A stretch of DNA of 64,000 nt from Escherichia coli. Lineage in GTDB: Bacteria; Pseudomonadota; Gammaproteobacteria; Enterobacterales; Enterobacteriaceae. The stretch lies in the NCBI RefSeq assembly GCF_009931435.1, contig NZ_CP043414.1. One strand, written 5' to 3'. Numbering within the stretch: position 1 is the first letter of the stretch; each line of letters opens with the position of its first letter. The position numbers and the translations under genes were made by a program. The notes beneath the pieces were generated by a model. That model was not told where the DNA came from, did not search any database, and saw only the letters and a program-made list of their open reading frames with translations. This document shows positions 43,142 through 62,319 of the stretch, in pieces.

Positions 43142-43172
43142 ATAAAAAAGGCCCCCCGGTTTGGGAGGCCTT
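43142..43172 (-). terminator. pheL-pheA attenuator terminator
   Basis: GC hairpin plus U-tract (minus strand: ggcctcccaaaccggggggcc ttttttatt) between pheL and pheA. Confidence 0.8.
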
Positions 43173-43218
43173 ATTGTTCGTCTTCGCATTCTGTTTCACA
43201 CGACGAAACGCCTCCCAT

Positions 43219-43266
43219 TCAGGGGAAGGTAAAAAAGAATGCGAAGAAAAACGGCGTGTGTTTCAT
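43219..43266 (-). CDS. pheL: pheA leader peptide PheL (MKHTPFFFAFFFTFP)
   Basis: 15-codon ORF with seven Phe codons immediately upstream of the attenuator. Confidence 0.9.
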   Translation of the reverse strand: MKHTPFFFAFFFTFP

Positions 43267-43349
43267 GTTTGTTTCCTTAGGTGACTTCAGTACAGTACCC
43301 GTACTGTTTTCTCGCTGTCAACAAAAAACGCGCCCGAAGGTGCGTTGTA

Positions 43350-43396
43350 AAACCCACTGAATTCAATGTTTTCCCTTTGTTTTCAGTGGGTTTTGT
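43350..43396. repeat. 13-bp perfect inverted repeat AAAACCCACTGAA / TTCAGTGGGTTTT just downstream of int; third AAAACCCAC copy at 43424; candidate int terminator and/or att arm site
   Basis: Seen directly in sequence at the prophage-chromosome junction. Confidence 0.5.
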
Positions 43397-43433
43397 TATT
43401 GGTGGGGGTTACTGATTACCCTATAAAACCCAC

Positions 43434-44456
43434 TTATGTGGATGAAATGTGGATGCCTCCTTTTAACGGATTAAGTGAAATTGCATCCTGGAGGAAATCA
43501 GGAGCGAGGTGCGCATAGGTCATAGTTTGCTGGATCGTGGCGTGCCCCATAATTCGCTGGAGCGTAAGTATATTTCCTCCATTAATCATAAAGTGAGCAG
43601 CAAAGGTATGGCGTAGAACATGTACAGCCTGTCCTTTTGGTAGGTCTGGCTTAACACTGCGAAGCACCTTGCGATATTCCTCATAATTGACGTCAAACAA
43701 AAGGCCGGATTTCTTTGTTTTGATCTCACTAACAACTTCATCAGAGACAGGAATAATTCGAACTTTTCCGTTTTTAGTTTTGTTAAACGTCACGCGATTA
43801 TTGATGATGTGTTCCGCGCGCAGATTTTTCGCTTCTCCCCATCTCGCCCCAGTACTGAGACAAAGTAGCGTAATCCGCCGGGCATCACCGCTTACTGCAT
43901 CCAGTAATTTGGCGATTTCTTCCATGGTGAGATACGTCATTTCGGGTGATTTTCGTTTCAAAGAGGGGAGGGCGCGGAGCGGATTTTCTCCGTGAAATTC
44001 CCCGGCATTTGCCAGGAGTGTAAACATTCCTCCGAGATCCGACTCATCACGCCGAACAGTAGACTCTTTTACTCCCAAAGATAAACGGGAGCTTCGATAA
44101 GCGGCCATGAAACGAGCATTAATCTGGCTAACCCTTGGATCATTCATTTCTTTGATGATTTTTTTCAACCTGGTTAGAACGCCGTTAGCATATGGCTTAT
44201 TGCGTCCACCCAATTCCCACCATAACGGAAGCAGATCTGAGAGATGACGTTGCTCTGTTGGCTTTTCAAGCCATTCCTTATCGTGCATGTGGCTGAGAAC
44301 ATAACGCTCAAAGGCCACTGCATCTGCCTTTTTCTTAAAAATCCGCTGAATCCGACGTCCACTTCGGCCACGCGGTCTAACATCCACTTTATACCGTCCA
44401 CCATCGAGCGCTTTAATTGCCATTGGCAAGCCCTCCGGTGAAACGAGGAAAGACAT
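43434..44456 (-). CDS. int: Phage tyrosine integrase (P2-type)
   Basis: 340 aa; catalytic region ...HVLRHTFAAHFMINGGNILTLQRIMGHATIQQTMTYAHL (R-H-x-x-R...Y). Confidence 0.9.
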   Translation of the reverse strand: MSFLVSPEGLPMAIKALDGGRYKVDVRPRGRSGRRIQRIFKKKADAVAFERYVLSHMHDKEWLEKPTEQRHLSDLLPLWWELGGRNKPYANGVLTRLKKIIKEMNDPRVSQINARFMAAYRSSRLSLGVKESTVRRDESDLGGMFTLLANAGEFHGENPLRALPSLKRKSPEMTYLTMEEIAKLLDAVSGDARRITLLCLSTGARWGEAKNLRAEHIINNRVTFNKTKNGKVRIIPVSDEVVSEIKTKKSGLLFDVNYEEYRKVLRSVKPDLPKGQAVHVLRHTFAAHFMINGGNILTLQRIMGHATIQQTMTYAHLAPDFLQDAISLNPLKGGIHISST

Positions 44457-44489: not shown

Positions 44490-44792
44490 TTAGCCAATTT
44501 TCCTTTCGGATGGGGGTAAGTCCGTTGGCTCTTGCCCATAGTGTGCGAGAGCCGGAGCTATCTGCCCGGATTCAGGCGCAATTTTCCCAGTCATAAACCA
44601 CAACGCATATTTCTCAAATCTGGGGTTGTTTAGTATTTGCTCAATTACTTCAGCATTAGGGATAGTTTTACCGCTTTCATATCTCCACAGAGCATCACGG
44701 TTTAAACCAAGCATTTTTGCTGTATCCGGGAGGCTAGTAAGTCTCTCGCTTTCACGCATGATTTTTATGCGCTCTCCAATAGTCATACGCAT
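44490..44792 (-). CDS. Phage immunity repressor (C/CI-like, XRE-type HTH)
   Basis: Product MRMTIGERIKIMRESERLTSLPDTAKMLGLNRDALWRYESGKT; divergent from the cox-like gene. Confidence 0.75.
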   Translation of the reverse strand: MRMTIGERIKIMRESERLTSLPDTAKMLGLNRDALWRYESGKTIPNAEVIEQILNNPRFEKYALWFMTGKIAPESGQIAPALAHYGQEPTDLPPSERKIG

Positions 44793-44887
44793 GTTGCAAT
44801 TCTCCAACGTCTGTATTAATGTTTATACAAATGAGTTTGATTTGGGGCATCCGTCGCAAGAAATACCCCAAACAGGGAGATTATCAC
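44793..44887. promoter_or_regulatory. Lysis-lysogeny switch region (face-to-face repressor and early promoters expected)
   Basis: ~95-bp gap between divergent repressor and cox-like genes, as in P2/186. Confidence 0.5.
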
Positions 44888-45214
44888 ATGAATGAAGAAC
44901 TATTGAGGGCATTGTTTAAGATCCCAGACCCCATCACCGTCGATGAGTTTTCCCGCCGTACAGGTAAGACCGAATCAGCCGTAAGAAAGTTGGTAGAGCG
45001 TCGACTCATCCCTCTAACTACTGAGCGCGAGGTTTTAGGCGAGGAAGGGAGTTCGCGCCGTCTTCTCATCCTTTGGAATGAGTGGCTCGAAATGGTCTAT
45101 GACGCAACGAAACAGCTTCCTCCTGAGCGTAAAGATTGGCGCAATCACTGGCTTAAGAAAGCCAAGAAGCTGGCGGAAGATTTGGGATTAGGCTTTCTTA
45201 ATTTTGCTGCATGA
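44888..45214 (+). CDS. Cox-like early regulator/excisionase (putative)
   Basis: First early-operon gene, 108 aa, AGGGAG RBS; assignment mainly by position. Confidence 0.45.
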   Translation: MNEELLRALFKIPDPITVDEFSRRTGKTESAVRKLVERRLIPLTTEREVLGEEGSSRRLLILWNEWLEMVYDATKQLPPERKDWRNHWLKKAKKLAEDLGLGFLNFAA

Positions 45215-45232
45215 GATGCAGGGAGTTTTGAT

Positions 45233-45574
45233 ATGAAACAGCAACGTAATTCACGCTTTCGTAATGGTGCTGAACGCCACGCTAACCGTTTCGCTACCAG
45301 TGCATCACGCAGCAACATCCGCTACAGCCTGAGTGATACACACGCAACGCCGGATGGCTACCCAGTAAAACAAATCGGCGAGCACGCTTGGCTGATTGAG
45401 AAAGCTGGAATCGTGATCCACAAATGCCCACGCAATCCGTTTACCGGAAACCGCATTTTTGCATTGAGCTGTGGCGACAATCAGTTTGGGCAGGATTTCA
45501 CATTATACGAAGCACTTCGCACGGTTGATCGTCTGCTTCGCGGGCAAAGTTTTATTAAACAGGCTGATTTATAA
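45233..45574 (+). CDS. Hypothetical phage protein (113 aa)
   Basis: Early-operon ORF. Confidence 0.5.
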   Translation: MKQQRNSRFRNGAERHANRFATSASRSNIRYSLSDTHATPDGYPVKQIGEHAWLIEKAGIVIHKCPRNPFTGNRIFALSCGDNQFGQDFTLYEALRTVDRLLRGQSFIKQADL

Positions 45575-45584
45575 CGGGTGCTTT

Positions 45585-45872
45585 ATGACCAAAGACCATG
45601 CACAAGGTGTATTTATCCGCTTTATTGATTTTCGCGGTGAACTGTTATTACGTGCATCCGCTATTGACGGAGTGACTCCGGCGGGTAAAAACGGAGCCGA
45701 CGAAGCCACTTACGTTTATCTGAACGGCACGCGACTGCTTGTGGAACTTCCGTACCAGACCGTACGAGAAATCATTAGCGAAGCTGAAAAGGCACGCCAA
45801 GTTAATGGCGATGAACCCTATATCGAAATTATTTGTATGGATTCAGAAGCTGAAATACAGAAAGCAGATTAA
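45585..45872 (+). CDS. Hypothetical phage protein (95 aa)
   Basis: ATG at 45585 inside the longer ORF; early-operon position. Confidence 0.45.
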   Translation: MTKDHAQGVFIRFIDFRGELLLRASAIDGVTPAGKNGADEATYVYLNGTRLLVELPYQTVREIISEAEKARQVNGDEPYIEIICMDSEAEIQKAD

Positions 45873-45880
45873 AGGGCGTT

Positions 45881-46126
45881 GTGATGGGCAAAGAATATAA
45901 AACTCTCATTAACAAAGCACTTGAGCGTTTTTATTTTCGCTTAAGTGCATCAGGCGCTCATGCTGAACGTGCAGCCCGTGACTCATTGACCAGGGCAATC
46001 CGGAGTTTGTATGACGTCGCTTTTTACGCTGATGATCTGGATGCACTTAACGAACTTTCCGAGCTGATCTGTGCCGCAGAATGCGGGGAACATATTGAAC
46101 CGTATAAGCTGGGGAATATCGCATGA
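45881..46126 (+). CDS. Hypothetical phage protein (about 80 aa)
   Basis: Early-operon ORF. Confidence 0.45.
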   Translation: MMGKEYKTLINKALERFYFRLSASGAHAERAARDSLTRAIRSLYDVAFYADDLDALNELSELICAAECGEHIEPYKLGNIA

Positions 46127-46329
46127 GTATATTTATCTCATGGCTTGTTCTGATTATTTCGGTGGCCTGCGCCATTGGAATTATGCGAATTATTCATTCA
46201 GTAAAAAAGATTGAACGTTTTTTCACTGGTGAATAACGATACAAATAAAACATCAAATTAAATAAGAAAACGTGAAAACCATCCGTATTAACGGAGGTAT
46301 TCGCACACGCAAATAACGGAGATACAAAA

Positions 46330-46740
46330 ATGCACGCAAAAGAAGAAGGTATCATCAGAGCACTGAAAGAAATTTCAAAGACAGAAAACGAAGTAGCGAA
46401 AAAAGCCATAGCAAATAATCATATGGACGTCGCAACCCACACACTGATAGTCGCAAGAGTCACGGCAGAAGCAGCCGAAATTATCGCAAAACAGGATGCT
46501 GAACTGGCGGTTCTCAGAACACAACCAGTCACCGGACTGGATTTGTCTAACACCGGACGCCTTATTTACACAATTGGCTCGGAGCTACAGCGATACACCA
46601 TTATCGCCGGGTTACAGGATAAATACCTGATCACTCCTCACCCCATAAGGGAATCAGAAATTCTGACAAATCTCCGCCTGATAGAGCGCTCTCAAGTCGC
46701 ATTCATTGATGACGCACAGTGCACCGTATTTAACGCATAG
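46330..46740 (+). CDS. Hypothetical phage protein (136 aa)
   Basis: Early-operon ORF. Confidence 0.5.
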   Translation: MHAKEEGIIRALKEISKTENEVAKKAIANNHMDVATHTLIVARVTAEAAEIIAKQDAELAVLRTQPVTGLDLSNTGRLIYTIGSELQRYTIIAGLQDKYLITPHPIRESEILTNLRLIERSQVAFIDDAQCTVFNA

Positions 46741-46763
46741 AGTTACTGGACAAAGGGGGCGCA

Positions 46764-46967
46764 ATGGCAATTAAGCATTTTCCCGTCGTTCGCTTTACCT
46801 CCAGAGGGCGCGAATACGAGGTCGACGAACGCCTGATTACCACTATCGACAAACATCGTTCGGAAAAGGATGCACACCACATCTACCTCACTGACGGCAC
46901 TTACTTCTGCGCCACTAATGTGGCGCGGGTAAACCTTATCCGACAGGTACAGGAGCCACGCAGATGA
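46764..46967 (+). CDS. Hypothetical phage protein (67 aa)
   Basis: Stop overlaps next start (ATGA). Confidence 0.45.
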   Translation: MAIKHFPVVRFTSRGREYEVDERLITTIDKHRSEKDAHHIYLTDGTYFCATNVARVNLIRQVQEPRR

Positions 46968-47230
46968 CCATTCTGGACTACATCGCTACTCATCCGGGGT
47001 GTAGCGGCGGAGAGATCGCCGCAGCACTGAATACTCCAACCACAGCCATTAATGCTGAGTTACGCCAACTTTGGCGCGGCGGCTTAGTCATCAGAACAAA
47101 CCGCAGCACAGGTGGTCGCGCTCGCAAAACTGGAGGCCAGGCTTCTTACCACGTAAACCCGATGCCGTTCGGGTGTAGCAATCCACTTACTCACATGTTT
47201 AACCAGCTACTGAAGGAAGCCAGAACATGA
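46964..47230 (+). CDS. Hypothetical small protein, possible winged-helix DNA-binding (88 aa)
   Basis: Translationally coupled small ORF. Confidence 0.45.
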   Translation: MTILDYIATHPGCSGGEIAAALNTPTTAINAELRQLWRGGLVIRTNRSTGGRARKTGGQASYHVNPMPFGCSNPLTHMFNQLLKEART

Positions 47231-47526
47231 GCACCATCAACCACCAGAAGCTACGCGAACTGGCATTTGCCCTGCAACGAATGGCAACACCTCAAAAATT
47301 ACTGGCATTTCGCGCAATGCTCTCGCCGTCTGCTGTGCTGGCACTGCTGGATGAGCTGGAGCACGCCAGAACCATGGCTCCAGCCATTCGCCTGACGCTC
47401 CATCATGAAATCGCTGATTTCTGCGCACCACTGGGTTCGCCTGGTGAACCAGAAACGCCGGAAACAATGCAACGAGAGCTACTGCAACGCATCGACAAGG
47501 TTTTTGATTTTTTCCTTAACCAGTAA
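47227..47526 (+). CDS. Hypothetical phage protein (99 aa)
   Basis: Translationally coupled small ORF. Confidence 0.45.
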   Translation: MSTINHQKLRELAFALQRMATPQKLLAFRAMLSPSAVLALLDELEHARTMAPAIRLTLHHEIADFCAPLGSPGEPETPETMQRELLQRIDKVFDFFLNQ

Positions 47527-47537
47527 AGGACCGCGAT

Positions 47538-47750
47538 ATGAACAAAAAGACCTGGTTTCGCGCATACATGTGGGCGCTGGTATGCGTCCTCGTTTCTCTC
47601 ATTCTGTATGTGGGGCTACTTCCCAGAATGATTTCATCAGACAGCTCCTTCCTGGTATTGCTGGGCATTTTTGTCGCCTTGCTGTACCCGGCGGGCGTTG
47701 TTCGCTTTTTCAGTAACTACATCAAAGCAATTATGGAAACCAAACAATGA
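47538..47750 (+). CDS. Small membrane protein (70 aa, two hydrophobic helices)
   Basis: WALVCVLVSLILYVGLL and FLVLLGIFVALLYPAGVV segments; stop overlaps next start. Confidence 0.5.
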   Translation: MNKKTWFRAYMWALVCVLVSLILYVGLLPRMISSDSSFLVLLGIFVALLYPAGVVRFFSNYIKAIMETKQ

Positions 47751-48571
47751 AAAAACTATTACCACTCATCCCTCTCCTGATGACCACACTTCTGGTTGGC
47801 TGTGACCGCGTGGAGCCGGGCAATGTAGGCATCAAAGTCAACAAACTGGGCGACGATAAAGGCGTCGGTGAAGTAGTTGGCGTTGGCCGCTACTGGACAG
47901 GCTGGAATACAGAGGTTTACATCTTCCCGACTTTCAAACAAATGAAGACTTACGATGAGCCGTTCAACTTCCAGATGAGTGACGGCACAACCATCGGCTA
48001 TCACATCGGCGTGGCCTACAAAGTTGATCCATCCAAAGTTACCACTGTGTTTCAGACCTACCGCAAAGGCGTGGATGACATTACCGACACTGACCTGCGC
48101 CAGAAGATCGCCGATGCACTCAACCGACTGGCCAGCAAAATGACCACCGATAAGTTTATCGACGGTGGCAAGTCTGAACTGCTGGATTCAGCACTTAAAG
48201 ACATTCAGTCAGAAATGACACCTATCGGCATTCAGGTCATGAGCCTCTCTTATGTCGGTAAACCGGAATATCCGCCAACCGTTATCGACAGCATTAACGC
48301 CAAAGTCACGGCAAACCAGAAAACCCTGCAACGCGAACAGGAAGTCAAGCAACGCGAAGCAGAAGCCAACATGTTGCGCGCAGAAGCTGCCGGACAGGCT
48401 GATGCCATTCGCACAAAAGCCCAGGCTGAAGCCGACGCCATTCGTTTACGCGGTGAAGCTCTGCGCCAGAATCCCGGCGTTATGGAGCTGGAAGCAATCA
48501 ACAAATGGAACGGCACGCTGCCGCAATACATGACCAGCAACACCGCTGTTCCGTTTGTTCCGGTGAAGTAA
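47747..48571 (+). CDS. SPFH/band-7 (prohibitin/HflC-like) domain lipoprotein
   Basis: Lipobox LLVGC; central band-7-like region; C-terminal Ala/Glu/Gln-rich coiled coil (REQEVKQREAEANMLRAEAAGQADAIRTKAQAEADAIR). Confidence 0.65.
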   Translation: MKKLLPLIPLLMTTLLVGCDRVEPGNVGIKVNKLGDDKGVGEVVGVGRYWTGWNTEVYIFPTFKQMKTYDEPFNFQMSDGTTIGYHIGVAYKVDPSKVTTVFQTYRKGVDDITDTDLRQKIADALNRLASKMTTDKFIDGGKSELLDSALKDIQSEMTPIGIQVMSLSYVGKPEYPPTVIDSINAKVTANQKTLQREQEVKQREAEANMLRAEAAGQADAIRTKAQAEADAIRLRGEALRQNPGVMELEAINKWNGTLPQYMTSNTAVPFVPVK

Positions 48572-48577
48572 TTAAAC

Positions 48578-48623
48578 CCGGCCAGTGAAAATCGCTGGCC
48601 GGAGCAGTATCAGGATTTTTTTT
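48578..48623 (+). terminator. Hairpin (ccggccag-N9-ctggccgg) with distal T8 tract after the SPFH gene
   Basis: 8-bp perfect stem; U-tract starts 13 nt after the stem so terminator function is uncertain. Confidence 0.4.
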
Positions 48624-48741
48624 AGTATGCCGTTCTCACAAAAAAACCGCTTGCCATGCCGCAATCAGTCAGGTTACATTTCCGCTGCACCTCATAAAAC
48701 GGGTGCCGGGTTTCGCAGCCTGCTGACAACCAAAGCGCACA

Positions 48742-48761
48742 ACCGCGCCAGCGGTTTTTTT
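48742..48761 (+). terminator. Rho-independent terminator (accgc-gcca-gcggt + T7) in a non-coding gap
   Basis: Stem, tetraloop and U-tract; flanked by cgcaca/tgtgcg outer complement. Confidence 0.55.
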
Positions 48762-48802
48762 GTGCGTACTGTATTGCCACGTCTTTTTCGCACACGAATT
48801 AT

Positions 48803-48878
48803 GGCGGGGCGTACGGGGCCGACTTCGGTCGGGCCGGGTTCTTTGGTTGCCGGTACTGCGAACCCCGTACGTCTCGCC
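48803..48878 (+). ncRNA. Candidate structured RNA: 16-bp stem (14 Watson-Crick + 2 G-U on the plus-strand transcript) enclosing a UUCG-tetraloop hairpin
   Basis: ggcggggcgtacgggg pairs with ccccgtacgtctcgcc; inner ccgac-TTCG-gtcgg; the two G-U pairs would be C-A mismatches on the opposite strand. Confidence 0.35.
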
Positions 48879-48940
48879 ACCCACAGTTTCGCAGCTCTGG
48901 ATGGTGAGTTTTCAAAACTTACAACCAAAGAGGCTACACC

Positions 48941-49171
48941 ATGGCAAACCGCAAACAGCACCGCGCTATCGCGGAGCGTCGTCACATCCAGACTGAAATC
49001 AACCGCAGACTTTCCCGCGCATTCCGCGTCGCTAAAATCATGCACATCAATATGCTGCATGAGCGTAGCTGCGAACTTTCAAACCTCTACTCATCCGCTG
49101 TTTTCAGTTATCTGGCGGATGATCTGCGCGAGCTTCAGCAGCTCATCCAGCAGCAAAACAAACTCCATTAA
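48941..49171 (+). CDS. Hypothetical small basic protein (76 aa)
   Basis: ORF preceding the replication gene. Confidence 0.4.
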   Translation: MANRKQHRAIAERRHIQTEINRRLSRAFRVAKIMHINMLHERSCELSNLYSSAVFSYLADDLRELQQLIQQQNKLH

Positions 49172-49243
49172 TTCCTGTTCCGGGCCTTTCCTGCACCTTG
49201 CGGCGGGAGGCCTTCGCACATCTGTAACAAGAGGATTGCCGCA

Positions 49244-49609
49244 ATGATTCTCGCCAACGACTTTCTTGAATACCTGCTCAACACAGAGCGTGATCTTGCC
49301 GCTCGCGTGCGTGATCGTTATGACATGTACCTGAAATCCCTGCCTGTACCGCAGCTCGCTGACGGAAAGATTGTTATTGATGGTCGCTACATGATTGACA
49401 GCCACGAGGGAAATTACAGGCTTTCCCGCATTGAAGGTGGCACCCCGTCCGTTATTGGCATTTACCAGCGCCCATCCTCTGCAATCGTCGATGTGATTGC
49501 CGACAGCATCCGCATCACACATCGCCATGCCGACACAGAAGACACCGTGCTGGAAATTCAGCGGCTGGCTACAGTCTGCCGCGACACCCTGAATGGCATG
49601 ACGAAGTAA
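49244..49609 (+). CDS. Hypothetical phage protein (121 aa)
   Basis: ORF immediately upstream of rep. Confidence 0.5.
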   Translation: MILANDFLEYLLNTERDLAARVRDRYDMYLKSLPVPQLADGKIVIDGRYMIDSHEGNYRLSRIEGGTPSVIGIYQRPSSAIVDVIADSIRITHRHADTEDTVLEIQRLATVCRDTLNGMTK

Positions 49610-49615
49610 ATCACT

Positions 49616-52438
49616 ATGACGGCAGAGTACATCAGGGACTGGCAACAACCGCGCCACGCAGTGGGGCGTGAAGGAACGGGGATCCCCGCTCCTGAATCCG
49701 CGCTTTCCTCCTGGCTGGATGCCTACCGGGTAGAGAACGAGCGCCGCCAGGAAATGGCTGATGCGGCGTTCTCCGCCACGCCGCTGGGCAACCTGATTAA
49801 TAAAAGCCTGGACGCACAGGAAAAACAGGACAAAACCATCACACTGGCAGGAGACGCCAGAAAACAGGCACGCGGCGCAGTGGATGAAGCCATGACCTCG
49901 CTGCGCCTGCTGCCGTCCTATCTGCGCGATCCGCTTATTCGCCACCTCTCCTTCCTGCGCAAAAAACAGGAAGCCGATCGCCGGAAAGGCAAAAAGAGCT
50001 GGCAGGCGGAACGCTATGCACGCGGAACCCTGCGCAAAATATTCGAACGTCTGGACCGCACCGATCACCGCTGGCTGACACCGGGTTATCGCTCCCTTGC
50101 CGGACGCGAACGCCTGGACGATTTGCTTTACCTGCCGCAGCTCAACAAACACCAGATACAGACGCTGGCCACCATGACGGCGGCGATGTTCAGCAGCACC
50201 TTCGAAAAACTCTGCGATGGCTTTGGCGCGACTGATGGCGAACTGACCATGGATGTAACGCTGAAGGCGTATCAGATGCTGGCCCGCATGGCGTTACACC
50301 TGCACGCCATGCCTCCACATTATGACGCACTGACAACAGACAAAGACCGGAGGAACGAACCGGACACAGAGCTGCTGCCGGGCGCAATCCTTCGCCTGAC
50401 CTGTGCGGAATGGTGGAAACGCAAACTGTGGCTGTTACGTTGCGAGTGGCGGGAAGAACAACTCCGCGCCGCCTGTCTGGTTTCCAGAAAAACATCGCCC
50501 TATCTGAGCCAGGACGCGTTAAGCGAGTTTCGCGCACAGCGCGAGAAAACACGCGATTTCCTGAAAAGTTTCATGCTGGAAAACGAAGACGGGTTCACGA
50601 TTGATCTCGAGACAGTGTATTACGCGGGAGTAAGTAACCCGGTTCACCGTAAGGCAGAAATGATGGCCACCATGAAGGGACTGGAACTTCTGGCCGAAGC
50701 CCGTGGCGACAGAGCGGTGTTTCTGACTGTCACCTGCCCGTCAAAATACCACGCAACAACGGAGAACGGTCATCCGAACCCCAAATGGAACGGGGCCACC
50801 ATGCGCGACTCCAGCGATTACCTGGTTAACACGTTTTTTGCGGCGGTCCGCAAAAAACTGAACCGCGACGGCCTGCGCTGGTATGGCATCCGCACGGTGG
50901 AGCCTCACCATGACGGCACCGTGCACTGGCATATGATGGTCTTTGCTCATCCGGAAGAAATCGACAGCATCGTGGCCATCACCCGCGATATTGCCATTCA
51001 GGAAGACCGCCACGAGCTGGGCAATGATATTACTCCGCGCTTTAAAGTGGAGTATGTCGACGGCTCAAAAGGCACACCAACCAGCTATATCGCGACCTAC
51101 ATCGGGAAAAACCTGGACAGCCGCGCCGTGGATGGCATCGACCCGAAAACGGGCAAACCACGCGTTGACCACGAAACCGGAAAGTCAATGGCCGAGAGCG
51201 TGGAACGCGCCATCGGCTGGGCGCGCCTTCACCGTGTCCGCCAGTTCCAGTTCTTTGGTATCCCCTCCCGTCAGGTGTGGCGTGAACTGCGTCGCCTTGC
51301 CAGCCAGATGGCACGCAACCCGGAAGGCCCGCAACAGCTGAAGGATGACGCAATGGATGCGGTACTCGCTGCCGCTGATGCCGGATGTTTTGCCACCTAC
51401 ATAGAGAAACAGGGCGGCGTTCTTGTTCCACGCAAAGACTACCTGATTCGCACCGCCTACGACCTCGCAGATGAGCTGAACGATTACGGCGAACAGAGCG
51501 TACAGATTTACGGGATCTGGTCGCCACTCATCGGGGAATCCTCCCGTGTGTGCACGCATCCGGATAACTGGAAGCTGGTAAGACGTAAACCGGAAACGGA
51601 AGACAGCGCCCGCGAAAATGGTTTTGACCTTCAGGGCGGCCCTGCCGCCCCTTGGACTCGTGGCAATAACTGTCCCCGTGTACAGGAAACGGACAACAAC
51701 GGGACAGAACAGCCGGAAGAACGGCCAGCACCGTGGCCGCAGCTTCCTGACAGCGTTGACGTGAATGAATGGATGCGCTCACTGAAACGGCACGAACGCC
51801 GGGCGCTGATGCGTTCGCTGCGTGACAAACAGGCAAAAAACAGCAGTGATGAAATGCAGAACTGGACACAGAGCCGCAAACAGCCACGGCCTTTGCCTGA
51901 TAACCACGAGTTACTCGCTAAAGAATGGCGGGAGTCTGCTGAATCTCTCGGCCTGCATATTGGTGAACAGCAGATGCAGCACCTGTTACGGGGCGGCAGT
52001 CTGTACGTTGACGGCAGCATCATTGCACCGCAGGGATTTGAAATTGTACGCAAACCGGATACCCGCCCGGACAGCCGAATCACGCAGCTCTGGCAGCGCC
52101 TGAGCCGTAATCACGGCGTAAGCAGCACGGGGATCCGCCATAACCCGGTCGCCAGCTATCTGGAACAGCTGGGGGCATCAGACCCCGAAGCCGCCGCACG
52201 CCTGGCATCCACACTTCAGCAGGACCAGAACACCATGAAAACCCCCGTTACCGTGCTTTCTGACATGCTGCGCGCCATCCGTGACGCAGAGCACGCACAG
52301 AGAATCAGTGAAACAACTGAACGCGCCCGCCGCAAAGCAGACCTGCTGCGGGGTGGCCTGACCAGTGGAAACAAAAAACAGACAAAAACAGGATTCACAA
52401 ATCCCGTAAATGAGCAAAAAACGCGCCGTGATATATGA
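49616..52438 (+). CDS. Phage replication initiation protein (P2 gpA-family rolling-circle endonuclease), 940 aa
   Basis: HUH-type motif region VEPHHDGTVHWHMMVF; position after the early operon. Confidence 0.8.
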   Translation: MTAEYIRDWQQPRHAVGREGTGIPAPESALSSWLDAYRVENERRQEMADAAFSATPLGNLINKSLDAQEKQDKTITLAGDARKQARGAVDEAMTSLRLLPSYLRDPLIRHLSFLRKKQEADRRKGKKSWQAERYARGTLRKIFERLDRTDHRWLTPGYRSLAGRERLDDLLYLPQLNKHQIQTLATMTAAMFSSTFEKLCDGFGATDGELTMDVTLKAYQMLARMALHLHAMPPHYDALTTDKDRRNEPDTELLPGAILRLTCAEWWKRKLWLLRCEWREEQLRAACLVSRKTSPYLSQDALSEFRAQREKTRDFLKSFMLENEDGFTIDLETVYYAGVSNPVHRKAEMMATMKGLELLAEARGDRAVFLTVTCPSKYHATTENGHPNPKWNGATMRDSSDYLVNTFFAAVRKKLNRDGLRWYGIRTVEPHHDGTVHWHMMVFAHPEEIDSIVAITRDIAIQEDRHELGNDITPRFKVEYVDGSKGTPTSYIATYIGKNLDSRAVDGIDPKTGKPRVDHETGKSMAESVERAIGWARLHRVRQFQFFGIPSRQVWRELRRLASQMARNPEGPQQLKDDAMDAVLAAADAGCFATYIEKQGGVLVPRKDYLIRTAYDLADELNDYGEQSVQIYGIWSPLIGESSRVCTHPDNWKLVRRKPETEDSARENGFDLQGGPAAPWTRGNNCPRVQETDNNGTEQPEERPAPWPQLPDSVDVNEWMRSLKRHERRALMRSLRDKQAKNSSDEMQNWTQSRKQPRPLPDNHELLAKEWRESAESLGLHIGEQQMQHLLRGGSLYVDGSIIAPQGFEIVRKPDTRPDSRITQLWQRLSRNHGVSSTGIRHNPVASYLEQLGASDPEAAARLASTLQQDQNTMKTPVTVLSDMLRAIRDAEHAQRISETTERARRKADLLRGGLTSGNKKQTKTGFTNPVNEQKTRRDI

Positions 52439-52514
52439 AGCGCGCACAAAACAGGCGAAAACGGGATTTAAAAATCCTGTAACCGATTAATTAATCAACA
52501 TAAGGAAAAGCGAC

Positions 52515-53474
52515 ATGAAAATTTGTATCGACGACGGATCCACCAACATCAAGCTGGCATGGACTGAGAACGGCGAACGCCGCAACGCCATCAGCCCGAA
52601 CAGCTTCAAGTCAGAATGGTCTGCGCCGTTCGGTGGCACGCAGCCCGCGAACTACATGCTTGATGGCGTGCGCTATGGTTTTGATCCGGTCAGCGATCGC
52701 TTTGTCCAGACGACCGACACGCAATACCAGTACAGCGATGTGAATGTCATTGCCATTCATCATGCGCTGGTCAAATCAGGCATCACGCCACAGGAGGTGG
52801 ATGTGGTTGTCACCCTGCCACTGAGCGAGTATTTCGACACAAACGCACAGCCGGACATGGCCAACATCAACCGCAAAAAAGCGAACGTTATGCGCCCGGT
52901 GGAGTACCAGAACGGCGAGGCATTCACTATCCGTAACGTGCGGGTTATGCCTGAATCCATTCCGGCTGGCTTTAAAGCACTGGCTGACATGAGTCCGTTT
53001 GAATCCCTGCTGATTGTGGATTTGGGCGGAACCACGCTGGATGTGGCAAAGGTTCAGGGGCAACTGGCAGGTATCAGCCAGGTGTTTTGCGATCCACACG
53101 TAGGCGTTTCCCTGATGGCCGATGCCGTACTGTCGGTAATGGCCACTAACGGTATGCGCACCAGTCACCACATCGCCAATACCATTATCGAACATCGCCA
53201 CGATGAAGCCTGGCTGCGCCAGCACATCCACAATAACGCACATTACGCCAGCCTGATGGCTGTTATTCGTGAAAAGGAAGAAACACTGAAACAACGCGTG
53301 ATCCGCGCGCTGGCGGGTTTTTCGGGTTACGGGCGGGTGATGGTTGTAGGTGGAGGGGCAGAGATTGTGGCACCCGCTATCCGCGAAGCCTGCGGAGTTA
53401 ATGCGACTTTCATCGCGGACGGGGTGCCACAGTTTGCTCTGGTTAATGGGCTGTACGCAATGGACAAGGAGTAA
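52515..53474 (+). CDS. parM: ParM/StbA actin-like segregation ATPase
   Basis: Colinear similarity to plasmid R1 ParM: IDDGSTNIKL, ISPNSFK, YSDVNVIAIHHAL, RKKAN, VMPESIPAG, LLIVDLGGTTLD, GGGAE, LVNGLY. Confidence 0.85.
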   Translation: MKICIDDGSTNIKLAWTENGERRNAISPNSFKSEWSAPFGGTQPANYMLDGVRYGFDPVSDRFVQTTDTQYQYSDVNVIAIHHALVKSGITPQEVDVVVTLPLSEYFDTNAQPDMANINRKKANVMRPVEYQNGEAFTIRNVRVMPESIPAGFKALADMSPFESLLIVDLGGTTLDVAKVQGQLAGISQVFCDPHVGVSLMADAVLSVMATNGMRTSHHIANTIIEHRHDEAWLRQHIHNNAHYASLMAVIREKEETLKQRVIRALAGFSGYGRVMVVGGGAEIVAPAIREACGVNATFIADGVPQFALVNGLYAMDKE

Positions 53475-53478
53475 ATCA

Positions 53479-53793
53479 ATGACGACACCAACCAGACGGA
53501 TAAGTTTCTATCTGAAGCCCGCCGTCGTCAAGAGCGAACGGGAGGCGTGCAGTTACCTCGACAGCCTGCCAGCCTCCGAACGCAGCCGCGCACAACGCGC
53601 GGCTTTTCTGGCCGGACTGGCTCTTATAAAACGCACCCCCGCGTTGGCGTATTCGCTGGCAGAATGGTCAGAAGACGAAATACGGATGCCACCGCTACCA
53701 GTACAGCCTGAAAAACCGGCGCAACCAGCAGCAGACAGCGCCCCCCATATGCAGCAGGTGAAAAAGAATATTCAGGCGTTTTTCCCGAAGTGA
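53479..53793 (+). CDS. parR: ParR/StbB-like centromere-binding protein
   Basis: N-terminus RRISFYLKPAV...SYLDSLPASERSRAQRAAFLAGLALIKRTP resembles R1 ParR; immediately follows parM. Confidence 0.7.
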   Translation: MTTPTRRISFYLKPAVVKSEREACSYLDSLPASERSRAQRAAFLAGLALIKRTPALAYSLAEWSEDEIRMPPLPVQPEKPAQPAADSAPHMQQVKKNIQAFFPK

Positions 53794-53807
53794 AAACAGG
53801 AGTAACT

Positions 53808-54095
53808 ATGTCCACCATTACCAAAGAATGGTTACAACGTAAAATCACAGAGTTTAAATCGTGGCGCGAAGACATCCCGTTCGGTCTTGATGAAGACGAT
53901 CACAATATGTTAATCGCACTGGAAATCGCACTTGCATCACTGGAAGCAGAGCCAGTGGCATGGATGCACGCAAATAATCCTATTGGAATACCGGCGATAA
54001 CAAGAAGTAAAGATGTTGCAGACAGCTGGCGCTCTAAGGGATGGAATGTATTGCCTCTTTATTCACTGACCCGCTCCATCAATTTATGCCATTAA
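53808..54095 (+). CDS. Hypothetical protein (95 aa)
   Basis: ORF between parR-like and Rrf2-like genes. Confidence 0.45.
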   Translation: MSTITKEWLQRKITEFKSWREDIPFGLDEDDHNMLIALEIALASLEAEPVAWMHANNPIGIPAITRSKDVADSWRSKGWNVLPLYSLTRSINLCH

Positions 54096-54106
54096 TGGAA
54101 GTAATC

Positions 54107-54466
54107 ATGATGAAAGATAATTCCGGAAGCCAGCGTGCATCAGTTGCAGTTATGGTAATGATTAAATTTGTGAAACAGTACACCGGAAAGCCAATCTCGC
54201 TCCGGCAATTAAGCAAAGAAACCGTTTCACTGTCATATCTGGAGCAAATATTCAGATATTTACGGGAAAGTAGCCTGGTAAAAGCCACACGCGGCCCGGG
54301 TGGTGGATATATCCCGACAAAAGAAAATTACAGTGTTGGTGATATTGTCCGGGCAATGAAATGTTCCGGATTATATACACAGCACGTTATTCTGGCTGCA
54401 CTGGATAATATTTCTTTAACCAGCCTGCAGGAAGACACAAATTATCAGTTGTCTGCCATTGAATAA
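54107..54466 (+). CDS. Rrf2-family (IscR/NsrR-like) transcriptional regulator, apparently lacking the cluster-ligating Cys triad
   Basis: VSLSYLEQIFRYLRESSLVKATRGPGGGYIPTKENYSVGDIVRAM closely parallels the IscR core ISLSYLEQLF...GLV..VRGPGGGY; only one Cys in the C-terminal region. Confidence 0.7.
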   Translation: MMKDNSGSQRASVAVMVMIKFVKQYTGKPISLRQLSKETVSLSYLEQIFRYLRESSLVKATRGPGGGYIPTKENYSVGDIVRAMKCSGLYTQHVILAALDNISLTSLQEDTNYQLSAIE

Positions 54467-54534
54467 GAAAACCCGGAACGGGTGCGCAAATTCTTTGTGC
54501 GCCCGTTCCGGGTTGGACAAGCGAAGCGCGTCAG

Positions 54535-54792
54535 CTATCCGGCCTGCAACAACTCCAGAGCCATTTGTTTTTCTTCCGGACGCATCCGCTCAATCAACAG
54601 CTTTAACACACCATTCTCCAGCCCGCTGGGCACCAGTGTGTGCGAGTAGGTCAGATTCATCACCCAGGTATGTCCGCACTCGAGACGGGTGCAACGGTAA
54701 TACACATCAGCAAACTGATCGGTTTTCCAGGCTGTTTTCTCAATCACTGCATGTGCACCGCAGCAATGACATCGCGCTTTCTGTCTGCGCAT
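54535..54792 (-). CDS. Ogr/Delta-family zinc-finger late-gene activator (putative)
   Basis: CHCCGAHAV...YYRCTRLECGHTWVM (C-x2-C ... C-x4-C); GGAGG RBS upstream of ATG 54792. Confidence 0.6.
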   Translation of the reverse strand: MRRQKARCHCCGAHAVIEKTAWKTDQFADVYYRCTRLECGHTWVMNLTYSHTLVPSGLENGVLKLLIERMRPEEKQMALELLQAG

Positions 54793-54857
54793 TTTCCACC
54801 TCCCGGAACAGCGTTTTACTGCCACCGATTTTACCCGCTCTTTCCCCATACCGCACA

Positions 54858-55892
54858 TCACTCCATGGGTTCATCAAAATCAAGAATAAATTTCACCTCC
54901 CCCAGTCGTCTGATATCCGGGTCGCTGTTGATCCCCTCCATAATCAGGCGGCGCATCGGGATAACCTCATCCCTGTAATATGCCTCGCGGGATTTCAGTG
55001 GGTCACCAAGCCCGGCCGTATTTGCGGGAATGATGCCGGCAAGCCCGGGTGGAAAACGGTGCGCAACGAGCTGATCCTGGGCACTGATAGTTTTTATATT
55101 CAGGAACTCATCTTTTGTACCTGAATCTCCGATAGGGATCACCTTAACGCCTTCTTTGTCTCCGCCAGGTATATTGATAAACATGGATTTAAAATTGCCC
55201 GCCCCTTTTGACGCCTCTATCTTTTTACGGAATTCCGCCTCGAGCTCGGGATCCATGTCCGGGTCAGTGGAATACAGGATATAACCAAGATGTGCGCCGT
55301 TCTTGTAATACTTGCGGCGAAAGCGGGTGGCATCCACATTCAGCATGGCAGATTCCATCCCGTGAATATAATCCGGGACACCGTAAACCTGCTGTTGCGG
55401 GTCATAAATGGCCACGAACACTACTTCGCCTGGCGGGTAAACGAGATCTTCCAGTGCCGCCTGCACAATCACCGTGCCACCCTCGTTGTTACGCCGCAGG
55501 TACAGAGAAGGTAACGTATGCAGGCGCACCACTCGACCGAAGCCATTGCGCACTTTAAGCAACCCCATATCCCCGAATATCAGCAGATTGGTTACTGCTG
55601 CCGCCATGGCGGCGTGTGTCATACCACCACCCCCCCGAAAACCCTGCATGATCATATTGACGCGCGCACGCAATACCGCGCCGTGATACGGTGCGATATT
55701 GGACAACATGGCGAGATCCATGCGCTCAATGGGCGGCGTGTACCAGCCGTTATAGCCATCCCAGAGCGAGCCGTAATAACAGCCCCATGCAGCGACCGGT
55801 TCCGGGTCACCAAATTCAATAAAAGTCATTTTGCTGGCTGTTTTTTTTGCCACGCCATCGTGTAACACGGGGTATTTTTTCTTTTTACTCAT
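54858..55892 (-). CDS. Phage portal protein (P2 gpQ-like)
   Basis: 344 aa, same length and position as P2 Q, translationally coupled to the terminase gene. Confidence 0.75.
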   Translation of the reverse strand: MSKKKKYPVLHDGVAKKTASKMTFIEFGDPEPVAAWGCYYGSLWDGYNGWYTPPIERMDLAMLSNIAPYHGAVLRARVNMIMQGFRGGGGMTHAAMAAAVTNLLIFGDMGLLKVRNGFGRVVRLHTLPSLYLRRNNEGGTVIVQAALEDLVYPPGEVVFVAIYDPQQQVYGVPDYIHGMESAMLNVDATRFRRKYYKNGAHLGYILYSTDPDMDPELEAEFRKKIEASKGAGNFKSMFINIPGGDKEGVKVIPIGDSGTKDEFLNIKTISAQDQLVAHRFPPGLAGIIPANTAGLGDPLKSREAYYRDEVIPMRRLIMEGINSDPDIRRLGEVKFILDFDEPME

Positions 55893-57672: not shown

Positions 57673-57866
57673 AAATAAACCTCACCTGCTGATGCAATTT
57701 TAATTTATGCATTTTCAGCAAAGGATTTTTTAAAAACGAATATCGCTTTTCGGTATTTTTCGGATATATACGCATATCCGAAAGTACCGGAAATTAATCA
57801 GATGACGACATTTTTATTTCTCCGTTAAATAACGCCAGTTTAATTTTTATCAGCGGGTTAATTCAG

Positions 57867-58757
57867 ATGTCGAAACTGAAAACAGACTGGGTGGTCGTAG
57901 CCACTTCAGGCCCCACCATCGACGGTCGGGAAATTGATCCAAAGTGGCTGACGGATGCCGCCGAGGTTTATAACCCGGACGAACACACCGCCATGCTCTG
58001 GCCGTTTCATGCCAGCGCCGGCTGGCGTGCTTTCACCAATAACTATGGTCTTGTTGATGCACTGAAGGCGGAAAAAGTCGGTGATAAAGTGCAGCTGAAA
58101 GCCCGCCTGATACCCAACCGCTTTCTGACCGAAGCCAACGAGGCTGGACAAAAACTTTTCACCTCCATAGAGGTAAAGGAAAACTACCTGGGAACAGGCA
58201 AATTCTTTGTATCCGGTATCGCTGTGACTGACACACCGGCCAGCATCAACACCACCCGCCTGCAATTTTCGCAGGGAGATTCCATTCACATGGGGAATGC
58301 AGAAGAACTGAATTTCACGCTGCAGTCTGACGACGAGCAGGCCAAACGCAGTTTCTTTTCCGGCCTTTTCTCCGTGGGACGCAACAAACAGGAAAACGAT
58401 ATGAACGAAAAACAGTTCGGCCAGTTGATGGACGCTATCAACAAAACCGGCGAACGCCTGGACAAACTGGAAGAAAACGTCGCGCAGTTCAGCGCGAAGG
58501 ATGCCCCGAAAGATACCAGTGATAACAAGCCGGAAGGCAGCACCGGCGATCAGGGGCAGGACAACGCAGAACAGAACAACAAGGACGACAAAACCTTCAC
58601 GCTGACCACCGAGCAGGGCGAAAAGCTGTTCTCCACAGTGAACGCCATCGCGGAGAAGGTTACCAGTATGGAAACCGCATTTGCTGAACTCAGCAAGGAC
58701 GCCACGAAGCTGCCGGGCAACAATCCGGCCGGTGGCGAAACTTTTAACCTGGTGTAA
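57867..58757 (+). CDS. Capsid scaffolding protein (P2 gpO-like)
   Basis: 296 aa, acidic/coiled-coil C-terminal half; precedes the major capsid gene. Confidence 0.7.
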   Translation: MSKLKTDWVVVATSGPTIDGREIDPKWLTDAAEVYNPDEHTAMLWPFHASAGWRAFTNNYGLVDALKAEKVGDKVQLKARLIPNRFLTEANEAGQKLFTSIEVKENYLGTGKFFVSGIAVTDTPASINTTRLQFSQGDSIHMGNAEELNFTLQSDDEQAKRSFFSGLFSVGRNKQENDMNEKQFGQLMDAINKTGERLDKLEENVAQFSAKDAPKDTSDNKPEGSTGDQGQDNAEQNNKDDKTFTLTTEQGEKLFSTVNAIAEKVTSMETAFAELSKDATKLPGNNPAGGETFNLV

Positions 58758-58771
58758 CCGGAGAGAACGCA

Positions 58772-59785: not shown

Positions 59786-59802
59786 TAAACGGAGCGCACG
59801 GT

Positions 59803-60513: not shown

Positions 60514-60612
60514 ACGACTCCCAACAACCGGGCGGGCGCGGTGGAGGTGTGCCGGCAAAAGCCATCAGCACACTGCGGAAACCGGTCAGCCCGCCTTTCC
60601 CCGGAGTGAGCA

Positions 60613-61106: not shown

Positions 61107-61115
61107 GGAAATGGT

Positions 61116-62299: not shown

Positions 62300-62319
62300 C
62301 AAAATCAGGAGACAAACCA

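Follow-up and report, generated by a model that had tools for sequence, protein, structure and literature searches.

A P2-family prophage at the raiA/RaiZ terminator of Escherichia coli: structure of the junction beside pheL

In the record of phage P2 (NC_001895), the attachment site runs in the order Int P-arm site, IHF site, core, Cox region and Int P′-arm site, with ∼36 bp between the P-arm site and the core and ∼87 bp between the core and the P′-arm site. It is followed by int and C, with cox beyond. The core is 27 bp long and each arm carries a pair of TGTGGA-type repeats at 11-bp spacing; the published arm consensus of P2-type integrases is tgTGGaCa (PMC3448106). The six cox-boxes of P2 attP face two ways (PMC3936717), and the P2 P′ arm contains an inverted repeat, GGGCTTTCA/TGAAAGCCC, whose arms are the best matches to the cox-box consensus TTAAA(G/C)NC(A/C), in opposite orientations. 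P2 itself uses its own chromosomal attachment sites. Integration at the 3′ end of a tRNA or tmRNA gene is described for phage 186 (tRNA-Ile) and for Fels-2 and SopE-phi (ssrA) (PMC3448106). PR-X, a cryptic P2 remnant in K-12, has an annotated boundary that overlaps the last 18 nt (the terminator) of the cyaR small-RNA gene, and offers an earlier case of P2-type attachment at the terminator of a small RNA.

We analysed a 64,000-nucleotide stretch of E. coli DNA (RefSeq assembly GCF_009931435.1, contig NZ_CP043414.1; the window), in which a preliminary description had placed a P2-like prophage directly beside pheL. Both junctions and the P2-family genes bear this out and set it between pheL and raiA (Table 1). 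The int gene lies 167 bp from pheL (pheL ATG at 43266, int stop codon at 43434-43436), close to the ∼170 bp first estimated, and pheL is annotated in E. coli genomes having the same junction. Int is 53.8% identical to P2 Int over its full length; the start at 44423, which matches the P2 Int start and the RefSeq annotation, is more likely than that of the longest open reading frame, which ends at 44456. The gene order is att-int-C with cox divergent, and C, int, pheL and pheA all lie on the minus strand. The replication and head genes belong to the families Phage_GPA (E = 2e-130) and Phage_cap_P2 (E = 7e-83), with a portal and a gpP-like terminase. An ARAGORN scan of 42000-46000 found no tRNA or tmRNA gene, in agreement with the initial view that no tRNA is involved.

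Table 1. Features of the pheL-side junction and the adjoining prophage genes, in window coordinates
Feature	Position	Strand	Basis or remark
Phe leader RNA, including pheL leader-peptide CDS (43219-43266)	43142..43267	-	Rfam RF01859, 131 bits against a gathering score of 55; host DNA
Putative pheL-pheA promoter	43292..43321	-	-35 TTGACA 43321-43316; -10-like TACTGT ∼43297-43292; read from sequence
att core, pheL-side copy, 27 bp, ACAAAAAACGCGCCCGAAGGTGCGTTG	43321..43347		Three-way alignment of pheL junction, raiA junction and empty site
Terminator hairpin, copy of the raiA/RaiZ intrinsic terminator	43327..43346	-	AACGCGCC-CGAA-GGTGCGTT; minus-strand T-run reaches 43321
Inferred strand-exchange region, GAAGG (CCTTC in int sense)	43336..43340		Hairpin loop and stem top
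Phage P′ arm spacer, 88 bp	43348..43435		Between core and Int arm repeats; missing from empty site
Box A, AAAACCCACTGAA, left arm of inverted repeat	43349..43361	+	Perfect 13-bp repeat
Box B, AAAACCCACTGAA on minus strand (plus strand TTCAGTGGGTTTT), right arm	43382..43394	-	Perfect 13-bp repeat
Possible degenerate fourth box, GTAACCCCCACCAAT	43397..43409	-	Direct-repeat family D2; weak
Box D, TAAAACCCACT, third copy (AAAACCCAC at 43425-43433)	43424..43434	+	Abuts int stop codon
int, P2-type tyrosine integrase, 329 aa	43434..44423	-	Pfam Int_N and Phage_integrase above cut-offs; RefSeq annotation
Int arm-type sites, ATGTGGATG twice, 11-bp spacing	43436..43455	+	Direct-repeat family D6; straddle int 3′ end
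C-type immunity repressor	44490..44792	-	HTH families; 52% identity to P2 C; phrog_147
Switch-region inverted repeat, TTTGGGGCA(N13)TACCCCAAA, between C and cox	44842..44872		Conserved in 7 relatives
Cox-like gene, 108 aa, candidate excisionase/directionality factor	44888..45214	+	P2 gene order; weak family matches
Remainder of P2-family prophage	45215..64000		Runs past window end; GPA replication protein, portal, terminase, P2-family capsid

The reading we favour, with a probability of roughly 0.8, is that a P2-family prophage recombined into the raiA/RaiZ terminator and that positions 43321-43455 are its integrase-proximal junction (B-O-P′, called 'attL' in P2). Of 5426 complete E. coli genomes, 124 have the left junction, and the count is the same for int with the P′ arm, for the C-cox module and for the right junction; the two junctions occur together in 124 (∼2.3%), and 2 metagenome contigs also carry both. 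The intact, empty raiA-pheL site is present in 5273 genomes of the same set, and the site is split in 152. The preliminary description had suggested locating the other prophage end and comparing an unlysogenised strain; both were done. The far end adjoins raiA and carries the direct repeat: the prophage of CFSAN018748 sits between pheL and raiA, related prophages are 35.6–37.7 kb long and end at raiA, and at least 60 of the 124 genomes have exactly the same 86 bp at the right junction. The near-isogenic strain 2020CK-00188 has the empty site; it matches the window up to 43340, differs within the core at 43341 only, and diverges completely from 43348 on. When empty-site genomes are compared with the far junction, homology begins exactly at the first base of the core.

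The core was defined from the window, the near-isogenic empty-site E. coli and the far prophage end in complete genomes. It has the form ACAAAAAACGCGCCCGAAGG[T/C]GCGTTG, is identical at 26 of 27 positions among the junctions and the empty host site, is common to both junctions and the K-12 empty site, and has a single match within the 64-kb window. This core is the intrinsic terminator of both the raiA mRNA and the RaiZ small RNA. The K-12 raiZ ncRNA (2737381-2737542) ends within the T-run of the core, and the RaiZ 3′ end has been described as 'a typical intrinsic terminator' (PMC5391140). A RaiZ model is absent from Rfam; below-threshold Rfam small-RNA matches over the junction were dismissed as noise. 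The native hairpin has an 8-bp stem and a UUCG loop and a predicted folding energy of −14.4 kcal/mol, against −9.0 kcal/mol predicted for the pheL-side copy, where a phage-derived T at 43341 gives an A.C mismatch in the minus-strand RNA. This T was seen in 8 of 8 pheL-side copies read; in the raiA-side copy, at least 60 genomes have C.

A minus-strand terminator hairpin had initially been placed at 43295-43325; there is none at that position, where only a plus-strand hairpin (43288-43306, in the pheL promoter region and also present in K-12) is found, and the real one lies ∼30 bp away (Table 1). The suggestion that it is the displaced terminator of the former neighbour holds in that it is the raiA/RaiZ terminator, but it is not displaced: it is the att core, of which each prophage end has a copy. 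With this duplication, a perfect terminator stays with raiA/RaiZ at the far end of the prophage, and pheL keeps its putative promoter and gains upstream a terminator copy predicted to be slightly weakened. The hexamers of the putative pheL-pheA promoter were assigned by consensus and are presumed to agree with the published pheA promoter. This stretch is host DNA, identical in 2020CK-00188 and unaltered by the insertion. The raiA/RaiZ terminator lies 1 bp upstream of the −35 hexamer, and hexamer and att core overlap by 1 nt.

On the mechanism we propose, the tyrosine integrase would recombine the 27-bp phage core with the identical host terminator sequence. Strand exchange most likely takes place in the hairpin loop, at CCTTC, and the two stem halves would serve as inverted core-type integrase sites. 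On one side the crossover is limited by the T/C difference at 43341, and on the other by an aberrant junction (L060), which has only CCTTC in common with its partner. A second P2-type element at the same site, treated below, shows a reciprocal arm swap at its junctions that confines its own crossover to CCTTCGGG. The mapping leans on a single short contig, L060, and on the integrase of the second element, which is a different one. Reconstructed from the junctions, the circle joint (attP) would read ...TGTTAGCTTT-ACAAAAAACGCGCCCGAAGGTGCGTTG-TAAAACCCAC..., the P′ side also being written TAAAACCCACTG. A search for this P-core-P′ sequence in viral and metagenome contigs found none, and megablast of core plus int against phage records gave no match and no close phage record.

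Around the core, the Int sites are laid out as in P2. The two ATGTGGATG repeats fit tgTGGaCa, have the 11-bp spacing of P2 and straddle the int stop codon, at the place where the P2 record has its Int P′-arm site. On the other arm, a second pair (ATGTGGACA and TTGTGGATG, at L001 37786-37805) occupies the P2 positions, followed by a one-mismatch match to the IHF consensus (L001 37828-37840), which resembles the annotated P2 site in quality and offset as a sequence match and in both elements ends 6 nt before the core. The P arm-core and core-P′ arm gaps are 40 and 88 bp. The 88-bp P′ spacer, always linked to this int in the 124 genomes, has the length and position of the P2 Cox-binding arm, and like the ∼87-bp P2 arm it holds an inverted repeat.

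This inverted repeat is the perfect 13-bp repeat that the preliminary description had noticed at the junction; the span first given, 43350-43396, was off by 1–2 nt. The arms are separated by a 20-nt spacer and lengthen to 18 nt at 89% identity. The third copy reported at 43424 is confirmed as box D. Exact AAAACCCAC occurs only three times in 64 kb (0.63 expected; 2 of 100 shuffles reach 3). The window holds 5 loci with perfect inverted repeats of at least 13 bp and a loop of at most 40 nt, and 200 dinucleotide shuffles gave 0.085 on average; the repeat is thus not due to chance, although such repeats are still not rare in real DNA. A possible fourth box occupies the place of the conserved GATACCCCA box of the relatives. 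The repeat is wholly phage DNA within the 88-bp arm, beginning 2 bp beyond the core. Because the duplicated sequence does not include it, it is neither the att core nor the crossover site. It does not fit tgTGGaCa, with which sites at 43436-43455 and on the other arm do agree, and this speaks against a P2-type arm site; the initial proposal of integrase arm or core sites is not sustained. The possibility raised at the outset, that the junction sequence is phage-internal and the core elsewhere, is true of the inverted repeat and false of the junction as a whole.

Since their position and arrangement match those of the P2 Cox boxes, we infer, with about even odds, that the AAAACCCAC boxes are candidate binding sites for the phage's Cox-like protein. 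By bending or coating the P′ arm, this protein would drive excision and block re-integration. Its family matches are below threshold (Pfam Phage_Cox, E = 2e-5; phrog_272, E = 2e-4), it has no NCBIfam match, and it is 28% identical to P2 Cox (pairwise E = 3e-9); a 98%-identical protein bears the RefSeq name 'Cox family'. Most of the relatives read (Int 58–69% identical) carry a terminator-like hairpin with an inverted repeat beside it, both at the offsets seen here. Two of them, L056 and L070, share a core yet differ in their repeat arms, and the arms are therefore not core-type Int sites. In a P2-type module, Cox boxes of the P′ arm would recur at the Pe/Pc switch. The P′ arms of the relatives share 39 9-mers with the C-cox switch region, against 18.9 in shuffles (1 of 300 reaches 39), while the window itself gave 1 against 1.9 expected. 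Scored in the window with a weight matrix made from the conserved boxes of the switch region, the AAAACCCAC boxes come out at ranks above 1000; the P′ arm of the window lacks the P2 cox-box consensus, and the boxes do not have the 10–11 bp spacing of P2 cox-boxes. The repeat of L056 is degraded, yet its Cox protein is nearly the same as that of L070. E. coli has two immunity variants of the C-cox module, with Cox proteins 98% identical, so the pair provides no test of box recognition. The integrase scan of genome contigs yielded 4 loci only, and most IMG/VR loci stop at the int stop codon, without att DNA.

The main rival to Cox boxes is that the inverted repeat acts as RNA, forming a terminating or stabilising hairpin in the 3′ UTR of the C-int transcript. 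Together with the terminator copy in the core, the hairpin would insulate the downstream pheL-pheA from read-through of the constitutive prophage Pc promoter. We consider this reading unlikely. The shared strand of C, int, pheL and pheA suits such a role, and a second hairpin could make a difference where the pheL-side terminator copy is predicted to fold at −9.0 instead of −14.4 kcal/mol. In int sense a 54-nt stretch folds with −20.4 kcal/mol (z = −6.7) and is followed by UUUUAC, but this U-tract has only four U, the repeat of the relatives has no int-sense U-tract after it, and that of L056 is degraded. A terminator scan made no call, though its loop limit leaves out loops so long. The lone arm variant, T to C at 43387 in box B of L030 and L074, turns one pair of the int-sense RNA into G.U; it is the only arm substitution among 8 copies, and a single wobble-compatible change is not covariation. 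The RNA reading also leaves the third copy and the degenerate fourth copy unexplained. A translation-coupled alternative hairpin (box D:B against B:A) fails, as relatives lack a third inverted copy.

Phage lambda, with its five arm sites, offers a model for direction-specific arm-type sites, and the boxes might be extra integrase arm-type sites used in one direction of recombination only. Read as its reverse complement, AGTGGGTT, the box has GTGG.T in common with the arm repeats TGTGGATG, and box D abuts arm repeats of the proven type. However, agreement at 5 of 8 positions with the register free is near chance, tgTGGaCa is matched by other sites at exactly the P2 positions in both arms, the repeat arms of the relatives (ACCCCATGAT, CCTTGATA) are unlike their own arm repeats, and the boxes fall outside the core set by the junction comparison. 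We regard this reading as improbable.

There is similarly little reason to expect the boxes to bind IHF or a similar DNA-bending protein of the host, by which the P′ arm would be folded onto the core. In lambda, the H′ site adjoins the core and a DNA-bending protein folds the arm back, and the core-adjacent position of the repeat resembles that of H′. The left repeat arm is a perfect IHF consensus in two relatives (L061, CAACCCCTTGATA, and L063, CAACCTATTGATA, against WATCAANNNNTTR), but in the window the P′ arm offers at best a match with 2 mismatches, located in the spacer rather than the arms. The IHF site of P2 is on the other arm, where this element has a matching site.

A broader scheme, which we also rate as a long shot, has the integrase clade systematically using Rho-independent terminator hairpins, with crossover in the loop and stems as core sites. 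The weakened terminator and the repeat hairpin would form a tunable insulator, and either C-int read-through would couple lysogeny to pheL-pheA or the prophage would perturb RaiZ/ProQ regulation. That the pheL-int adjacency is an assembly artefact or a phage-internal host look-alike is already refuted by the same two junctions in 124 complete genomes and 2 metagenome contigs and by the empty site in 5273 genomes, including a 100%-identical host background.

The second, diverged P2-type element at this site was found in E. coli O158:H23 CFIAFB20140388 (∼45 kb), and is full-length in 6 genomes. It uses the same attB hairpin, with int beside pheL, two GTCCAT arm repeats and an inverted repeat in the P′ arm. 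In contrast, its Int is only 58% identical, its body is mosaic with lambdoid genes, and its core is shorter, comprising just the hairpin, whose stem departs from attB by two symmetric differences. The raiA/RaiZ terminator is a defined P2-type attachment site, taken by one integrase type and, in a few more genomes, by a second. Searches of the searchable literature for raiA, yfiA, pheL or pheA with a P2-like prophage or integration returned nothing relevant, and we could not find a description of this terminator as a P2-type attachment site. The finding is of use in prophage annotation, as another example of phages targeting a small-RNA terminator, and as a natural, clean case for placing the crossover in a hairpin loop. 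The feature is of an ordinary, well-understood kind and leaves the understanding of P2-type integration unchanged.

Compared with P2, the element has the same gene order and related proteins (Int 54%, C 52% and Cox 28% identical) as well as the attachment-site layout described above. It differs in its core and host site, here the raiA/RaiZ terminator, in its AAAACCCAC boxes, which do not fit TTAAA(G/C)NC(A/C), and in its 108-aa Cox-like protein, which has its own PHROG family. The nearest sequenced phage is Klebsiella phage 3LV2017 (Reginaelenavirus), with Int 64% and the Cox-like protein 68.5% identical. This phage and related Klebsiella and Enterobacter prophages share with our element the offsets of the arm repeats, the inverted repeat and the terminator-like hairpin core, and a conserved TACCCC inverted repeat in the C-cox switch region. 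The group has no DNA-level match to the window, and has another core hairpin and host site and different repeat arms (CCCCATGA/TCATGGGG against AAAACCCACTGAA). PR-X resembles the element in its boundary at a small-RNA terminator and differs in that the RNA is CyaR rather than RaiZ, in integrase specificity, and in being a remnant without int. Phage 186 differs in that the Int described here has P2-type rather than 186-type arm specificity. As in the tRNA and tmRNA integrators, a phage copy of the 3′ end of a structured RNA restores the gene and a stem-loop provides a symmetric core, but the target here is a Rho-independent terminator common to an mRNA and a processed small RNA.

A search of 5426 complete E. 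coli genomes matched the pheL-integrase junction of the window in 124. In one of these, CFSAN018748, the prophage is P2-like and 35.6 kb long, with its far end ∼50 bp past the stop codon of raiA, and alignment of both junctions with the K-12 empty site gave a 27-bp core, ACAAAAAACGCGCCCGAAGG[Y]GCGTTG. Thus the other end of the P2-like prophage placed beside pheL in the preliminary description adjoins raiA and shares its core with the pheL-side junction. Comparison with an unlysogenised strain, 2020CK-00188, agreed: its raiA-pheL site is empty, its backbone is 100% identical to that of the window across aroF-tyrA-pheA, and the two sequences are identical through 43340, carry T (window) versus C at 43341 and lose all similarity from 43348 on. 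The far junction, made up of phage arm, core and raiA end, likewise occurs in 124 genomes; across 86 bp, at least 60 of these are 100% identical, with C in every one; the pheL-side core copies have T (8 of 8 read). The integrase gene with its adjoining arm and the C-cox module were each found in 124 genomes, and therefore this integrase is essentially always at the raiA-pheL site. The site is intact in 5273 genomes and split in 152, by the window-type element (124), a second type (6) or inserts outside this typing (∼22). One record typed 'plasmid' matches both junctions, int and C-cox, and may be a chromosomal fragment or a replicon given the wrong type.

The gene order is aroF (+), tyrA (+), pheA (−), the Phe leader with pheL, the int ORF (−), a C-type repressor gene and a divergent Cox-like gene; GPA, portal, terminase and P2-family capsid proteins are encoded in the remainder of the window. 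Neither a tRNA nor a tmRNA is present at the junction, which bears out the earlier claim that no tRNA is involved.

Features of the attachment region and their P2 counterparts (window coordinates unless marked L001, the CFSAN018748 prophage locus)
Feature	This element	Strand	P2 (NC_001895)	Sequence or remark
Phe leader with pheL	43142-43267	minus		Rfam Phe_leader, 131 bits
Terminator	43346 down to 43321	minus		AACGCACC-UUCG-GGCGCGUU, then U-run
Int P arm site	L001 37786-37805		24293-24320	ATGTGGACA and TTGTGGATG
P arm site-to-core gap	40 bp		∼36 bp	A/T-rich in this element
IHF site			24324-24357	1-mismatch consensus, ends 6 nt before core as in P2
Core	43321-43347		24356-24383	
Cox region / P' arm spacer	43348-43435		24399-24472	88 bp in this element
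Repeat arm	43349-43361			AAAACCCACTGAA
Opposite repeat arm	43382-43394			TTCAGTGGGTTTT
Third copy	43425-43433			AAAACCCAC
int stop codon	43434-43436		24462	
Int P' arm site	43436-43455		24470-24496	ATGTGGATG, twice

The attachment core is the raiA/RaiZ terminator. The annotated K-12 raiZ small RNA (2737381-2737542) has its 3' end in the T-run of the core hairpin, and pheL starts 57 bp beyond it. RaiZ is a ProQ-dependent small RNA cleaved from the 3' end of raiA mRNA, ending in a 'typical intrinsic terminator', with two 3'-terminal stem-loops shielded by ProQ (PMC5391140). A search of Rfam gave no RaiZ model. A minus-strand terminator hairpin near pheL had been described before; the hairpin is real, but lies at 43346-43321 rather than 43295-43325, and it is duplicated, one copy per prophage end, instead of displaced. 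The raiA-side copy is perfect (predicted fold −14.4 kcal/mol), and in the pheL-side copy (−9.0 kcal/mol) a phage-derived base creates an A.C mismatch in the stem. Abutting the core is a minus-strand TTGACA (43321-43316), which, from its sequence, we take to be the −35 hexamer of the pheL-pheA promoter; on that reading, the insertion would spare both flanking transcription units. The pheL promoter region contains, on the plus strand at 43288-43306, a hairpin of host origin (CAGTACAGTACCCGTACTG, then TTTTCTC) that K-12 shares and that may account for the earlier coordinates. Codon 4 of pheL (43255-43257) encodes Thr in the window (MKHTPFFF) and Ile in K-12, both variants being seen among prophage-carrying E. 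coli contigs.

The T/C asymmetry between the core copies places the exchange, as deduced by alignment, on the pheL side of 43341. An IMG/VR contig (2531839662_000010, 3047-3200) carries int and the P' arm with half of the core, to ...CAACGCACCTTC, fused to DNA with 99.7% identity to E. coli phage-plasmids of 48 kb (the ATCC 25922 plasmid type). The partner site (NZ_CP009073.1, ∼36860) lies inside a hypothetical gene and resembles attB. The arrangement was found in no complete genome; since the partners have only CCTTC in common, too few bases for an assembly overlap, the joint probably arose by integration at a secondary site. A second, partly lambdoid P2-type element of ∼45 kb (NZ_CP076709.1, 2966245-3011650) lies at the raiA terminator hairpin too, with the same orientation, is full-length in six complete genomes and has an Int 58% identical. 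Its core, GCACC-TTCG-GGTGC, is shorter, and two symmetric stem positions differ from attB. At its raiA-side junction the left stem is bacterial and the right stem comes from the phage, with the converse at its pheL-side junction; this reciprocal swap puts its exchange within CCTTCGGG. Taken together, the T/C asymmetry, the phage-plasmid joint and the second element lead us to infer that the hairpin loop is the overlap region and the stems the inverted core sites.

The 13-bp inverted repeat and third copy of the preliminary description both exist, and the 64 kb holds no other exact copy of the 9-mer AAAACCCAC than these three, where 0.63 would be expected. For perfect 13-bp inverted repeats with short loops, the window exceeds its dinucleotide shuffles ∼60-fold, but it has five such loci, so the repeat beside the core is non-random yet not exceptional. 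The other four of at least 13 bp are at 12092, 17880, 26968 and 54470, that at 26968-27010 having arms of ∼20 nt.

No phage record matched at the DNA level. The nearest phage by protein is Klebsiella phage 3LV2017 (Int 64%, Cox-like 68.5% identical), which, together with most of the seven other relatives whose flanks could be read (Int 58-69%), has the same layout and int-stop offsets: the arm repeats come first, followed by a (G)ATACCCC box that is conserved, an inverted repeat whose arms lie ∼20 nt apart, and a terminator-like hairpin and T-run forming the apparent core. The repeat arms vary among relatives (AAAACCCACTGAA, ACCCCATGAT, CCTTGATA), the helix-turn-helix region of the Cox-like proteins is nearly invariant and the C-cox switch region has a conserved TACCCC inverted repeat. 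Across relatives, arm and switch have 39 9-mers in common, against 18.9 in shuffles (1 of 300 shuffles reaches 39). Since sharing of this kind was absent from the window itself, and a matrix derived from the switch-region boxes did not score the AAAACCCAC boxes, the case is argued from position and architecture: we give a probability of about one half to the boxes being Cox boxes. The window's switch-region repeat, TTTGGGGCA(N13)TACCCCAAA (44842-44872), sits immediately before the start codon of the cox-like gene. Seven relatives, diverged in C and Int, have kept it, and it is thus probably an operator of the lysis-lysogeny switch.

A role for the repeat as RNA, as terminator or insulator, is plausible, because its int-sense transcript folds strongly (−20.4 kcal/mol, z −6.7) before UUUUAC, C, int, pheL and pheA share a strand and the terminator copy beside pheL is weakened. 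The sole natural arm variant is also wobble-compatible in the int-sense strand. However, such a role does not account for the extra box copies, no U-tract follows the repeat in relatives, and the repeat of one of them (L056) is no longer symmetric. Perfect consensus matches in two relatives suggest IHF sites, but the window has none. That the boxes are extra integrase arm sites is weakly suggested by GTGG.T, common to them and the arm repeats. Core-type integrase sites are excluded, because relatives L056 and L070 have different repeat arms despite a common core.

The late (head) genes of the window (53632-64000) have no megablast match to those of CFSAN018748 and the early regions are 96-98% identical, which indicates a prophage mosaic between P2-family lineages. 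Segment 47527-48636 is missing from the otherwise collinear CFSAN018748 prophage; it holds a 274-aa Band_7/SPFH-domain ORF (47747-48571), apparently an early-region cargo gene. Just inside the P arm at the raiA-proximal end, CFSAN018748 carries a Hok/Gef toxin gene, a Com-type regulator and a DNA methyltransferase (L001:36406-37744); the equivalent end of the window's prophage falls beyond the window.

Overall, this is a well-behaved prophage junction of low specialist interest, at a mildly interesting target where natural variants map the crossover neatly. We found no published description of the raiA-pheL site, which, with incomplete literature coverage, is absence of evidence only. Insertion at the 3' end of a structured-RNA gene, with the gene restored, is classical for tRNA and tmRNA targets (PMC3448106). 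A direct precedent for a small-RNA terminator as target is PR-X, a P2 remnant in K-12 whose overlap with the cyaR small-RNA gene takes in the final 18 nt of that gene. Identity to the P2 proteins is 54% for Int, 52% for C and 28% for the Cox-like protein, and the arm repeats conform to the published P2-type consensus, tgTGGaCa (PMC3448106). With the arm layout matching that of P2 (see table), the inverted repeat lies exactly where Cox binds in P2. The P' arm of P2 likewise holds an inverted repeat, GGGCTTTCA/TGAAAGCCC, whose arms are the best matches, in opposite orientations, to the cox-box consensus TTAAA(G/C)NC(A/C), in agreement with the six attP cox-boxes of P2 facing two ways (PMC3936717). 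By its integrase, gene order, arm repeats and shared core, the element is a P2-type integration module, with a candidate IHF site and candidate Cox boxes.
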